Source: Lama guanicoe (lineage: Eukaryota). From it: a DNA stretch of 64,000 bases. Both the position numbers and the translations under genes were made by a program. Each line of letters begins with the position of its first letter. Position 1 is the first letter of the stretch. The DNA lies in contig MU053559.1 in assembly GCA_013239625.1 (NCBI GenBank), positions 2,400,324 through 2,464,323 on the forward strand, read 5' to 3'. The notes under the pieces are model-generated. The model made no database searches. It saw nothing but the letters and a program-made list of their open reading frames with translations, and had not been told where the DNA came from. Of the stretch, positions 4,513-62,411 are shown piece by piece.

Positions 4513-4788
4513 TGTTCGTGCACTCCTTCTATTTGGTACCTTGGAATTCTCAAGAATAGACAGCAGCATCTTCACACCTACAGGTGCTTGCTTGATACCC
4601 ATGAATTTCTGTTTGCCTCATCATTTTCAGGTTTCTCTATCCTCTTAGATTAAGGACCCTGACAAATCCTTAGGACCACATTCTGAAGAGTCCCGAACAA
4701 AATGCTGAGAATGCTCTACAGTTGGGTAGGTGGCCCAGGTTGCTTGGCTACCAAGAGTGTGCTACTCTGGGCATAAAATTTTTTTCTT

Positions 4789-6201
4789 CTTCCCAAGGCA
4801 ATCTACAGATTTAATTCAATCCCTATCAAATTACCCAGGACATATTTCACAGAACTAGAACAAATCATAATAAAATTTATATGGAACCACCAAAGACCTA
4901 GAATTGCTAAAGCATTACTGAAGAGAAAGAAAGAGGCTGGAGGAATAACTCTCCCAGACTTCAGACAATACTATAGAGCTACAGTCATCAAGACAGCATG
5001 GTATTGGTACCAAAACAGACATATAGACCAATGGAACAGAATAGAGAGCCCAGAAATGAACCCACAAACTTTTGGTCAACTCATCTTCGACAAAGGAGGC
5101 AAGAATATACAATGGAATAAAGACAGTCTCTTCAGCAAATGGTGTTGGGAAAACTGGACAGCAGCATGTAAAACAATGAAGCTAGAACACACCCTTACAC
5201 CATATACAAAAATCAACTCAAAATGGATTAAAGACTTAAACATAAGACAAGATACAATAAACCTCCTAGAGGAAAACATAGGCAAAACATTATCTGACAT
5301 ACATTTCAAAAATTTTCTCCTAGAAGAAATAAAAGCAAGAATAAACAAATGGGACCTAATGAAACTTACAAGCTTCTGCAGAGCAAAGGAAACCAGAAAT
5401 AAAACAAGAAGAAAACCTACGGAATGGGAGAAAATTTTTGCAAGTGAAACCGACAAAGGCTTGATCTCCAAAATATATAAGCAGCTCATACGACTCAATA
5501 AGAAAAAAATAAACAACCCAATCCAAAAATGGGCAGAAGACCTAAACAAGCAATTCTCCAAGGAAGACATACAAATGATCAAAAAGCACATGAAAAAATG
5601 TTCAATATCACTAATTATCAGAGAAATGCAAATCAAAACTACAATGAGGTATCACCTCACACCAGTCAGAATGGCCGTCATTCAAAAATCCAAAAATGAC
5701 AAATGCTGGAGAGGCTGTGGAGAAAGGGGAACCCTCCTACACTGCTGGTGGGAATGCAGTTTGGTGCAGCCACTATGGAAAACAGTGTGGAGATTCCTCA
5801 AAAGACTAGGAATAGACTTACCATATGACCCAGGAATCCCACTCCTGGGCTTGTATCCAGAAGGAAATCTACTTCAGGATGACACCTGCACTCCAATGTT
5901 CATAGCAGCACTATTTACAATAGCCAAAACATGGAAACAACCTAAATGTCCATCAACAGGTGACTGGATAAAGAAGAGGTGGTATATTTATACAATGGAA
6001 TACTACTCAGCCATAAAAACCGACAACATAATGCCATTTGCAGCAACATGGATGCTCCTAGAGAATGTCATTCTAAGTGAAGTAAGCCAGAAAGAGAAAG
6101 AAAAATACCATATGAGATCGCTCATATGTGGAATATATAGACTCATGGACAGAGAATACAGACTTGTGGTTACCAGGGGGGTAGAGGGTGGGAAGGGATA
6201 G
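4789..6201 (+). pseudogene. LINE-1 ORF2p C-terminal fragment (post-RT region and CCHC knuckle), open frame, truncated
   Basis: Frame open from [16 protein letters not shown] (4789) through the listed ORF 5056-6201; CX3CX7HX4C motif [18 protein letters not shown]; lacks the EN and RT core. Confidence 0.9.
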
Positions 6202-9092: not shown

Positions 9093-9513
9093 GAATTTCA
9101 CAGAATTCACCAAAATAAATTATAAATATATTAACAAGTGAAGTAGAAACAAAAAGATGAATATTTCTCAGGTGTCTGGAGGAGAGATCATTTTAAATAC
9201 TTTAAAGCATTAGGAGAAAGCACAAAAGAAAGATAGATTCAGCTGGATAAACTTCAAGAGCATCACTTTAAAAAACAAAATTAAGCAACAAGCCACATAC
9301 TGAGAAGACTGTTTCAGGTCACCATTCTCAGGGATGTTAGTTTTAAAACAAAAAAGTAGAAGTTGGACAAAACACAAAACATGCAGCTATCAATAGGAAA
9401 CTGGGAAAAAGATGGAAAATTCACCAAAAAAATGAACTACTTTAGTAAACACACCTAAGATGAAATGTTTAACCTTGATTGCCATTGAAGATATGCAAGT
9501 AAAAATCAAGTAG

Positions 9514-18753: not shown

Positions 18754-19610
18754 CTACAGATTTAATGCAATCCCTATCAAAATTCTAGTGGCCTTTTTTT
18801 TTTGTAGAAGTGAAAAAGCCAATTCTCAAATTTATGTAATATTATAAGGATCCCAAATAGCCAAACAATCTAGAAAAAGAAGAACAAATTTGGAAGACTC
18901 ACATTTCCCAATTTCAAACTTTACTACAAAGCTATAGTAATCAAAATAGTGTGTTATGTATAGACTGATGGAATAGAATAGGGTCCAGAAATAAAAGCAT
19001 ACATCTATGTCCAATTGATTTTCAACAGAGATGTCAAGACCATCCAATGGAAAAATAATAGTCTCTTTAACAGATAATACTGGGACTAGTGAATATCCAC
19101 ATGCAAAAGAACTAAGTTGAGGGGGATGGATATAGCTCAGTGGTAGAGTGCATACTTAGCATGCATGAGACCCTAGGTTAAATCCCCAGTATCTGCATTA
19201 AAAAAAAAAGAAAGATTTTTTAAAAAAAGAATTAAGTTGGACCTTGTCTCATACCATATACGGAAGTTAGCTCAGAATGGATCAAAGACCTAAATATGAG
19301 TTAATACCATAAAACTCTTAGAAGAAAATATAGGAGTAAATATTTATGATCTTGGATTTGCACAATGGATTCTTAGATATGATATCAAGCATGAACATGA
19401 AAATAAAAAATAGATAAATTGGATTTCTTTATAATTGAAAAGTTTTGTGCTTCAAAGGATACTATCAAGAGAGTGAAAAGACAACCCACAGAATAGGAAA
19501 AAATATTTGCAAATCATATATCTAGTTAGCATCTAATATTCAGAATATATAAAGAATGCTTGCAATTCAAGAACAATAGGAAAGACAACCTAATTTAAAA
19601 ATGGGCAGTA
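18754..19610 (+). mobile_element. Old L1 (L1MB-like) ORF2 fragment, truncated at both ends
   Basis: ctacagatttaatgcaatccctatcaaaatt...gtgaaaagacaacccacagaataggaaaaaatatttgcaaatc; many stops. Confidence 0.8.
19121..19224 (+). mobile_element. tRNA-Ala(AGC)-derived camelid SINE, short form
   Basis: tatagctcagtggtagagtgcatacttagcatgcatgag...; 15-bp TSD aaaagaactaagttg (19105-19119) / aaaagaattaagttg (19225-19239). Confidence 0.9.
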
Positions 19611-21882: not shown

Positions 21883-22067
21883 TAGGTGGGATAGAGGCAA
21901 ATTTTCTACCCAAAGGAGGTTAGACAACCTCTTGGCTTACCCAGCATCCTCAATCCACATGGCTATTGGTGCTTCTGAATTGTATGTACAGATAAGTTGT
22001 CATTCAAGATAGCTGCATATGAGTGGCAGAACCCTGATCACCAGGCTCATATTAGACTACTTACCTA

Positions 22068-22460
22068 AACACTCAACAAGTATTTATTGAGTACCTACTA
22101 TGTACGAGAAACTACAATACAACTTGCTTCCGTTTGATCAGGAGCAAACTTGCTAGACTATAAGATATTGGGTTTGATGGTCATTCTGTCCACCCCACTC
22201 AAAGTATGGACAACACAACCCTCCACACACACCCCTCCTGCCCCATTCATTTTGCAAATGAGGAAATAATGACCTGGGGGTTACACTGGGGATGACACAA
22301 AACCCATGAGAATTGCTGCCCTGATGGAGCTCAAACGAAATTGAAATTTAAGAAAATAGACAAATACGATCATTTCAAGTGCTTTAAAGGGAACAAGTAA
22401 TGTGCTGATACAAAGACTAATGGGGAGAGCTTCATAAGAGAAGGTGGTTGAGAAGAATAC
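22068..22460 (-). mobile_element. L2 3' end interrupted by the left arm of an inverted duplication
   Basis: caacaagtatttattgagtacctactatgt (22074-22103) resumes as ctggggatgac...tgccctgatggagctca (22286-22333). Confidence 0.65.
22126..22274 (+). repeat. Inverted duplication, left arm (149 bp)
   Basis: Reverse complement of 23371-23519 with 11 mismatches and no gaps (hand alignment). Confidence 0.95.
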
Positions 22461-23370
22461 AATCTCCTCCAGAGAGGCTGATGCAGGGACAAGCTGCACA
22501 CCATAGGCTGGTGTTTTCAAGTTCTAAGATGGGTACCAGTAACAGATGATTCATCCTGGGAAGAAGCAGACTTTTGAGCAGGATGCAGGGATTCACTTTG
22601 TTTTAAGGGAAAACTTTACTTTTAAAAAAATCTTGGCTGCATTAGAACTGTTTATCCTAATATATACACAAAGGTCCCTTTTTTCACAGAAGGAAAATCT
22701 CCAGGGCGATACCAAACAATGAATTTTGTTTCTGGAGAAGAATGATTCTTGTCCTTGAGTAAAGGGGATTCAACTTGTTAAAGTTAATGAAAATTTGGGC
22801 TTCAGTTTACTGAGAAATCAGAGTTCCTCTTAATAGCTGTCAAGGCCAATGATGTTGAAAAGAAGGGAGTAGAAAATACGGGGAGTGATAAAGGAGGTGT
22901 AGATGGGATGTGAGGAAGTCTGAGAGGGGAATTAGAAGGGGATCCTGAGTAGGGAGAGAGATCAGATTGTGGGACCACTGTCTGGGAAATGCAGGGAGTG
23001 CTGGCTGAAAAGTTGATATCTCAGGACCCATTATGGATCTGAGACTTTGAGAGAGAAAAATATTATACAGACAATTCCTGGGCTTTTTAGATTTGTAGGT
23101 GAAACCTACAGTCTATTTACCACCTAAATATGATGCCTGGCACAGATCAAGCAAAGAAATCCCAAATTCGTATTCATCTACTATTTTTGTAAACATCCAC
23201 TAAGTGTCTAGATCATTTACCTCAGTCCTGTTCATAATCTCTTGCTTCGTTTTCTGCTATATGTCAAACAGCAGAGCCCTCTCTGTAGAAAGCACACCTG
23301 AAGATTTGGTTGTCTGCTTCCCAGAGCTCTAAGATGGTAAAATAATCACTTCTTTTGCATAACTTCAAGG

Positions 23371-23519
23371 GGCCATCATTTCCTCATTTGCAAAATGAAT
23401 GGGGCAAGAAGGGTGTGTGTGGAAGGTTGTGTTGCCCATACTTTGAGTGGGGTGGACAGAATGACCATCAAACCCAATATCTTACAGTCTAGCAAGTTTG
23501 TTGCAGATCAAATGGAAGC
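23371..23519 (-). repeat. Inverted duplication, right arm (149 bp; partly MIR-like)
   Basis: Pairs with 22126-22274; contains MIR-core-like tttcctcatttgcaaaatg. Confidence 0.95.
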
Positions 23520-25024
23520 CTAAAAGGGAGGAAAGCACAGGTATGATTGTTTTAAACCCAAGTCACTGGTGAAGTGTTCCCTGTTCTCTTCCCATCTATA
23601 CTCAGCCTCATTGGTCCAGGCTGCCCCAGTTTCTTAGCCCAGCTAAATGGTTCCCTCTTATTCTCTGTTCTCTATCCCCTTTGTATGTAATCAAAGCAGG
23701 CATCCTTCCATCCTCTAGCCTGATCCTTGCTGCCGTTCTTCATTTTAGATGCTCATTATTTCAGCTGTATTTTCAATGCTCTCTCATTACCCCTCTTATG
23801 TGTCCACCCACATCTCCATCTACAGTGTCTCTAATGTGCTTTCTATCCACTGTAGCTTAATAAAGGGAAATTATGCTAATGTTATTCAAATTTTTAAAAG
23901 GTAAAACCTGTACCATTATTATTCTGTTCCTCTTTCCCTTTTATTTATTCATTTCAAAAGAAAAAGTGTCTAATCATCTGAGAAAATTGTACTTGCACAA
24001 TGTTCACCACTTTTCTATTTTTTTTCCTTCTAATTAAGTAGGTTTTTCCAGTGGAGTTTGGATGCAGTAAGAAAGCTGGTCTTCTGAGTAGATCAGGAAT
24101 TAGGATGCAACTAGGGGCTGGGTCCAAGGCAACTTTAGAGTCAGCTAACAATTTTTATGCCTGGGAGATAACCTGGAAGGCCTGTTGAATGTGCTGTATT
24201 GGGAGTAAGGGACACAATTCCTGCGGACCTGAGTCAGAGGCTTTGTACATAATTAAAGCCTTAGGGACAAACAGGCTGCTTCCATATCAAATACAGTCTT
24301 CAACAAGCAAGGGATCTTTGCTTGCAAATGCCTAGAGGTGGAAAAGTTAATCTTAGTGTCTAGAAGAATTTCTTTGTAGGCATAGCCTAGCTTTGTTGAG
24401 AAGATACTTGGATAAGGATACAGAGAGGGAGGAGAGAGTCTTGAAGATCCAGAGTCCTCCAAGGAGGAGGAGCTAACCAAGAACTGTTTGGGACAAAGTT
24501 TGGGGAAGGAGACAAAGCCAGTGGCTGGAACCTCAAAGAAGAGACTTAGAGGAGAGGTGGTCCTGTTTGGAAATATTCATGTGAAATACTGTGTGTTGTC
24601 CAACCTGCTTTTTCCCTGTGGCCCCACAAAATCTTCCGTAAGACCTAGGAAATACTTGGTATGATTCGCTTTCTTGTAGAGGTTGGTTAAGGGGCCAAGG
24701 TTGCATCAAGTTCAGCTCAGGGAAAAAAACATTCAAGGCTTATGAATGAGGGCTGCATCTGGCATCTGGATTACACAGAGATTTATTTTTCCTTCCTAGG
24801 AGGTGAGTTTTACCATGGTCAAGAAGGACTTTTTAAAGTCTCAATGTATAGATAATGTTATGCTGGGGCCTGCATAATTGAGTCAGATTCACATGGATTG
24901 TGTCTACACCTTGCCAGAACAAACAAGTGATTGCGTTCCACTCTGAGTAAAAGTCAATCACATCAGCTACCTAATCATCAGATGATTGAAAATACAGATA
25001 GTTAACTGAAATTTAACTGGGAAC

Positions 25025-62317: not shown

Positions 62318-62411
62318 GGGTTGGGGCTGAGTATTGCTCAGCTGTAGAGTGTGTGCTTAGCATGCATGAGGTCCTGGGTTCAATCCCCAGTACCTCCATT
62401 AAAAAAATTTT
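62318..62411 (+). mobile_element. tRNA-Ala(AGC)-derived camelid SINE, short form
   Basis: gtgtgcttagcatgcatgaggtcctgggttcaatccccagtacctcca; TSD tttaaagaatacct at 62304-62317 and 62412-62425. Confidence 0.9.

Follow-up and report, generated by a model that had tools for sequence, protein, structure and literature searches.

A 149-bp inverted duplication between miR-221/222 and DIPK2B, probably a neutral template-switch copy, with one-sided G-U mismatches

The window, by which we mean the whole 64,000-nucleotide stretch of DNA that was analysed, contains a pair of inverted arms in an intergenic position between miR-221/222 (plus strand, ~123 kb off) and DIPK2B. A mir-221-family precursor pair lies on the plus strand ~101 kb before the window (L099:8479-8562 and 9248-9331); a strong CpG island stands ~91 kb upstream of the pair, and a plus-strand T skew covers the mir-221 interval, matching the expectation for a long host transcript. 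In the other direction, a DIPK2B exon is found on the plus strand at ~+234 kb, and TPR-repeat exons, which we take to be those of KDM6A, run on the minus strand from ~+291 kb onward. No CpG island was detected within 100 kb of the window, and Pfam searches with 35 of the 233 candidate exons gave no match at cut-off except the TPR exon ~295 kb off. Base skew drops steadily from ~+0.1 to -0.14 over 664 kb (L080-L119 and the window) and passes through zero near the arms, a profile like that of a replication skew domain or of two transcription units that converge.

The surrounding DNA also holds two tRNA-like Rfam matches (19126-19197, 41.9 bits; 62331-62393, 34.7 bits), which are alike, have many similar matches in the flanks and are likely the heads of a tRNA-derived SINE, as well as a 474-aa open frame at 4777-6201 that is similar to the C-terminal part of LINE-1 ORF2. 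Further upstream, in L089 (~window -201,419 to -200,766), a 218-aa intronless frame, whose resemblance we take to be to ribosomal protein L12, is probably a processed pseudogene. In the coordinates of one published supplement (PMC8891516), the order on the human X is KDM6A, DIPK2B, LINC01204, MIR222HG. When positions are roughly interpolated from the miR-221/222 host to DIPK2B, the arms fall in the LINC01204 interval. No paper on this locus was found in the literature searched, for which species names were not used as terms. We assume that the strand of human LINC01204 would correspond to the minus strand here.

The arms and the features around them, in window coordinates, are these:

22064, minus strand: donor-like GT, after the AATAAA
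22083..22088, minus strand: AATAAA, 38 nt past the left arm and belonging to the old repeat end
22070..22114, plus strand: initial stretch of an old repeat end, cut by the left arm (profile model positions 20-64 in the first pass, 11-53 when iterated)
22126..22274, plus strand: left arm, likely the inserted inverted copy (arm alignment; net insertion ~162 nt)
22161..22209, no strand: 49-bp perfect run common to both arms (mismatch map; double-depth contig in DNA run X15)
22275..22284, plus strand: ragged inner junction, with a 4-nt word in common with the continuation of the right arm
22275..23370, no strand: spacer, not inverted (orientation of the old repeat; contigs of DNA and RNA runs)
22285..22335, plus strand: the old repeat resuming inside the spacer, unturned and in register (model positions 64-121, E=0.00096)
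23371..23519, minus strand: right arm, likely the source copy (arm alignment; flank weakly continues as MIR-type, z 2.1)
23520..23541, minus strand: acceptor-like polypyrimidine tract and AG (9.4 bits), ending exactly where the right arm begins

An earlier note on this DNA had described 149-bp gapless inverted arms with 11 mismatches, a 49-bp perfect run and a 1096-nt spacer, and all of these values were reproduced exactly: 22126-22274 aligns without gaps, over 149 bp, to the reverse complement of 23371-23519, with 1096 nt between the two (22275-23370). When 11 mismatches are placed at random, a perfect run as long as 49 bp turns up in ~10% of cases. Seven mismatches (22160, 22210, 22221, 22235, 22238, 22268 and 22272) would become G-U pairs in a minus-strand RNA and two (22132 and 22144) in a plus-strand RNA, and the remaining two (22140 and 22142) are transversions. 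Over the 149 columns, a minus-strand RNA is thus computed to hold 138 Watson-Crick pairs, 7 G-U pairs and 4 mismatches, and a plus-strand RNA 138 Watson-Crick pairs, 2 G-U pairs and 9 mismatches. The note's observation that the seven core differences all run in one direction, giving G-U pairs on the minus strand, and that two outer transitions run the opposite way was confirmed; the outer 19 nt of the arms hold four mismatches and no minus-strand G-U, against seven of seven in a core whose boundary is post hoc. The right arm would form the 5' strand of the minus-strand stem, and the claim that this strand makes the better stem holds for the core duplex (-250.4 kcal/mol for minus vs -221.2 kcal/mol for plus, a difference of 29 kcal/mol). 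Folding of the whole region came out about equal, at -518.9 for minus vs -523.8 for plus, with minus no better.

A search of the 2.05-Gb mammalian assembly that skipped very common words found two copies of the arm sequence, which excludes a dispersed repeat or multi-copy family, and a 22-nt pattern search had the arm itself as its sole match. This search and the alignments agree with the note that the arms are a duplication and not independent MIR copies. In DNA run X15, the 49-nt run 22161-22209 assembles as a separate contig with a depth of 68.4, vs 36.1 alongside, and a 1285-nt contig bridges the spacer from arm to arm. Because the perfect run collapses at double depth in this independent run, an assembly artefact is rejected as the source of the repeat. 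Of the 24 runs surveyed, all of them contig sets, 16 contain half or more of the sampled words, under four organism labels; the feature is real and common to close relatives. Variation was read from one of the 16 DNA runs that contain the locus, X15, whose contigs reach neither the acceptor nor the outer parts of the arms at 22126-22160 and 23466-23519. Relative to the window, X15 carries 0 changes in 190 arm bases and 8 in the spacer, made up of 7 substitutions and 1 gap (P=0.28, from one near-identical animal). A contig from run X17 shows 6 substitutions within 18 nt at 22669-22686, adjoining the 1-nt deletion of X15; these make up a small cluster of spacer mutations. A metagenome scan for an orthologue returned one match of 23 nt, a chance similarity within CpG-rich DNA that does not extend into the flanks.

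The left arm splits an older repeat, which we take to be an L2-type 3' end in antisense. The motif immediately before the left arm has other copies in the genome, and a profile built from 24 of these aligned in its first version at 22070-22114 and again at 22274-22337, and the iterated profile recovered the second part at E=0.00096, a score reached by 0 of 40 shuffles. As the old repeat resumes in register past the arm, the left arm lies inside an older repeat and the spacer has kept its orientation. The spacer inversion raised in the earlier note is not supported in this assembly: the old repeat continues into the spacer unturned, and the arrangement is not that of a micro-inversion with duplicated breakpoints. 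The distance between landmarks in the old repeat is 182 nt here, and in those other copies that show the landmark (5 of 24) it is 15-22 nt, so that ~162 nt have been inserted; ~13 nt of the insertion lie outside the 149-nt match.

The arms share a core near 22246-22275 of the left arm, presumably MIR, in which an 18-mer has 99 genomic matches. Compared with 100 MIR-type copies, the right-arm flank showed a weak continuation (z 2.13, 1 of 60 shuffles, where real copies give z 2.4-10.4) and the left-arm flank none (z -0.54); two of the four windows compared were without clear signal. A profile search of MIR continuation matched neither flank, the single-sequence flank searches, which are weak, detected no repeat continuity, and a second MIR-type model favours the left arm (20.5 vs 18.2 bits). 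From these alignments we infer that copying ran from right to left, a direction that is likely but not firm, and there is a hint that the changes at 22268 and 22272 would have arisen in the left arm. At the junctions, a 4-nt word is shared just past the inner end and none is evident at the outer end; the word, at 22275..22284, may possibly represent microhomology or the decayed end of the copy. A poly(A) tail and a 5'-TTTT/A-3' site are absent at both ends of the left arm, whose sides carry, by eye only, an imperfect 6-7 nt repeat as a possible target-site duplication. Arm distance ranges from 0.056 (core) to 0.078, which at typical mammalian rates would put the age of the arms at some tens of millions of years.

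The acceptor-like site next to the right arm is equalled or bettered by 27 of the 45,257 minus-strand AGs in the 664 kb, with simple matrix weights, and five acceptors of the TPR-gene exons score 4.5-9.4 bits on the same matrix. Its coincidence with the arm boundary, which was noticed post hoc among several junction features, has a probability of 0.0003-0.014 by threshold and slack. An AATAAA would lie within 60 nt by chance in ~7% of cases, and is not independent of the insertion site. Taken together, the acceptor at 23519, the AATAAA and the donor at 22064 imply that one ~1.45-kb exon could hold the whole stem. Back-splicing, which the note had also considered, is not borne out: at the thresholds used (acceptors >2.5 bits, donors >3 bits, simple matrices) the spacer contains no acceptor-then-donor exon on either strand. 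In Rfam searches no family reached gathering score on the arms, and a known RNA family was rejected, all eight weak matches (E up to 5) being under that score; the best, mir-1271 at 22047-22119, has 26 bits vs a cut-off of 80.5 and lies outside the arms. A short hairpin within the old repeat end (22047-22120) overlaps this match.

Our data are consistent with a neutral template-switch duplication, which we consider the probable history of the locus. While DNA was being replicated or a break repaired, a local switch of DNA template would have made an inverted copy of the right arm; the copy would have landed within the older repeat and become the left arm, and the pair would then have decayed without selection, the one-sided G-U pattern arising by chance. 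Both arms could instead descend from MIR-type elements that inserted independently long ago, the left-hand one into the L2-type repeat, with a later overwrite of one arm by template switch or gene conversion primed in the common core, a history that would leave neutrality unaffected. The arms do run raggedly ~9-11 nt into MIR-like sequence past the inner boundary, where the 4-nt word is shared, and the ~13 nt beyond the 149-nt match fit as well, but two events are needed and the left flank has no longer MIR-type continuation, so that we regard this overwriting as unlikely. Alternatively, the left arm might be a cDNA patch from a spliced minus-strand transcript, carried into a nearby break in an RNA-templated, class 2 TSI-like event. 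Such a patch would explain why homology stops at the acceptor, where the arm boundary lies, and patches made by reverse transcription, 73-414 bp long and lacking poly(A), have been described; the donors described for them are, however, distant, and here the donor is 1 kb away (PMC5110952, for both points). Moreover, only 1 of 607 good minus-strand donors shares at least 4 junction bases, where ~3 are expected, and longer junction words gave no good donor. Because no upstream exon end fits the extra junction bases, an RNA-templated origin is weakened, and we hold it to be very unlikely. The weights that we attach to these histories and to the readings below are judgements with no computed posterior, and the variants of origin overlap with both the neutral and the selected reading.

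How far the G-U bias exceeds chance depends on what is counted. The note's 1-in-64 figure for seven concordant differences out of seven is accurate as stated (two-sided 0.016). On transitions only, seven of nine run in one direction (p=0.18), and the probability of any run of at least 7 among 9 transitions is 0.031. In non-overlapping repeat pairs from 1.46 Mb, such runs were found in 26 of 484 blocks (10/212 inverted, 16/272 direct), and in overlapping pairs in 36 of 756. A strict run of 7, unbroken by a transversion, among 11 substitutions had a simulated probability of 0.003-0.013 at transition fractions of 0.67-0.82, and occurred once in 716 control blocks of 11 substitutions (0/308 inverted, 1/408 direct), which come mostly from older pairs with fewer transitions (share ~0.59). 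The pattern is modest on transitions alone, and unusual per locus once the absence of core transversions counts. Among 34 local inverted pairs in the 1.46 Mb, two are low-copy local inverted repeats, this being one of them; hundreds to thousands per genome are therefore likely, and a scan meets the extremes. The other, at L190:7530-8086, has 42-nt arms around a 473-nt spacer and 5 mismatches, all transitions, of which 4 run one way. We conclude that the one-sided mismatches probably reflect chance.

As origins of the bias, CpG decay and an APOBEC-type cluster were rejected: judged by eye, the mismatch contexts fit no single motif. A neutral but systematic bias could also come from strand-biased mutation, with minus-strand A>G and C>T changes arising via transcription or replication. 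All seven core changes are minus-strand A>G or C>T whichever arm mutated, and the skew is negative from ~+75 kb onward. At the arms, though, the skew is about zero, the minus-strand G-U share in inverted pairs is 0.499 from -50 to +100 kb and 0.502 overall, and close inverted pairs (spacer 300-2000) show no overdispersion (p=0.83); this makes such a bias highly improbable here.

The selected RNA stem that the note had proposed fared unevenly: the better minus-strand stem stands and an acceptor lies at the arm start, but RNA contigs on the arms were not found. In its fullest form, a minus-strand non-coding exon would run for ~1.45 kb, from 23519 through both arms to the vicinity of the AATAAA (22088) or of the donor (22064), and would contain a stem kept by selection, a possible but doubtful reading. 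It would entail, with the same reserve, a 130-bp stem in which selection removes A-C mismatches and transversions and tolerates G-U pairs; such a stem would serve as an ADAR or Dicer substrate or as a nuclear-retention signal. Consistent with this are the core with its 7 G-U pairs and 0 mismatches, set against outer 19 nt without minus-strand G-U (across the post hoc boundary), the rarity of the strict pattern among the control blocks, the same-strand acceptor exactly at the arm start and the AATAAA past the other arm. The unchanged arm bases in X15 and the human lncRNA LINC01204 in the interpolated interval (PMC8891516 coordinates; strand assumed) point the same way. Because two features indicate the same strand, the minus-strand stem stays a live rival to the neutral duplication.

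Against the selected stem, the three RNA or RNA-guessed runs whose contigs were compared gave no contig on either arm or across the acceptor and no splice joints, in contigs that show presence, not absence. Two of these runs did yield short spacer contigs, which count in its favour, although they are single, unstranded, of depth 2.2 and 4.4, and may be DNA; X20 and X17 gave one such contig each, with a 39-nt match from an unrelated contig, and X18 nothing. Each of the four RNA or RNA-guessed runs among the 24 holds at most 5% of the words. In addition, the skew is about zero near the arms, strong acceptors in the window number 5 on each strand, the closest recognised RNA genes lie on the plus strand, no Rfam family matches at gathering score, and the AATAAA arrives with the old repeat. 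It is rather unlikely that the two readings meet in a one-step hairpin-RNA gene, in which one template switch would have made a lineage-specific hairpin in a minus-strand non-coding exon near miR-221/222, an exon that would start with the stem's own first base and finish at the repeat-derived poly(A) signal just beyond it, and selection would have kept the stem paired, with G-U changes alone accepted.

The neutral template-switch duplication has documented counterparts. Inverted copies made by template switch are described in germline DNA (PMC5453318; PMC8421209), and template-switch events are reported as common in human haplotypes (10.1101/2021.11.26.470150). As in the four-point model of PMC5453318 and the MMBIR of PMC8421209, the locus combines a ragged junction with a segment that repeats, in inverted orientation, an intact template close by, and the resulting inverted repeat is able to fold as RNA. 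In contrast to the switches in these surveys, which copy tens of bases within ~100 bp, ~150-160 nt would here have been copied from 1.1 kb away, and a template 1096 nt off lies outside the ~100 bp by which PMC8421209 defines such events; any microhomology at the junctions would here be blurred after long decay. If neutral, the repeat would be an ordinary, well-preserved fossil of a local template switch, with a range (1.1 kb) longer than that of the human surveys.

Templated sequence insertion polymorphisms (TSIPs), as described in PMC5110952, offer a second comparison. Those of class 1, which are LINE-1-mediated, are recognised by poly(A) and a 5'-TTTT/A-3' site, which the left arm lacks, and by a target-site duplication of at least 5 bp, for which the imperfect 6-7 nt repeat would be a candidate. 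With class 2 it shares a size within the experimental range of 73-414 bp, the lack of poly(A), extra junction bases and an intact donor; class 2 is defined by a distant donor, whereas the other copy is here 1.1 kb away, and an RNA intermediate is here hypothetical. In further contrast to these polymorphisms, the copy is present in another animal's DNA as well.

As a neutral copy, the arm is dated by its position inside an older repeat. Inverted repeats can also flank circular RNAs, and the reverse-complementary pair ~1 kb apart has that arrangement, around a spacer that, unlike that of circRNA-flanking repeats, is without an acceptor-then-donor exon at the thresholds used. Long hairpin RNA loci and the duplexes that exons form with editing-complementary sequences are the remaining comparison systems. 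The loop here, at 1.1 kb, sets the repeat apart from long hairpin RNA loci; it shares with them a long near-perfect predicted stem, G-U pairs on one strand and an arm predicted to open at an acceptor-like site. Long double-stranded RNA is usually an immune liability in mammals, and, were the exon real and the stem selected, the locus would represent a dated, one-mutation origin of such an RNA, retained in a mammal.
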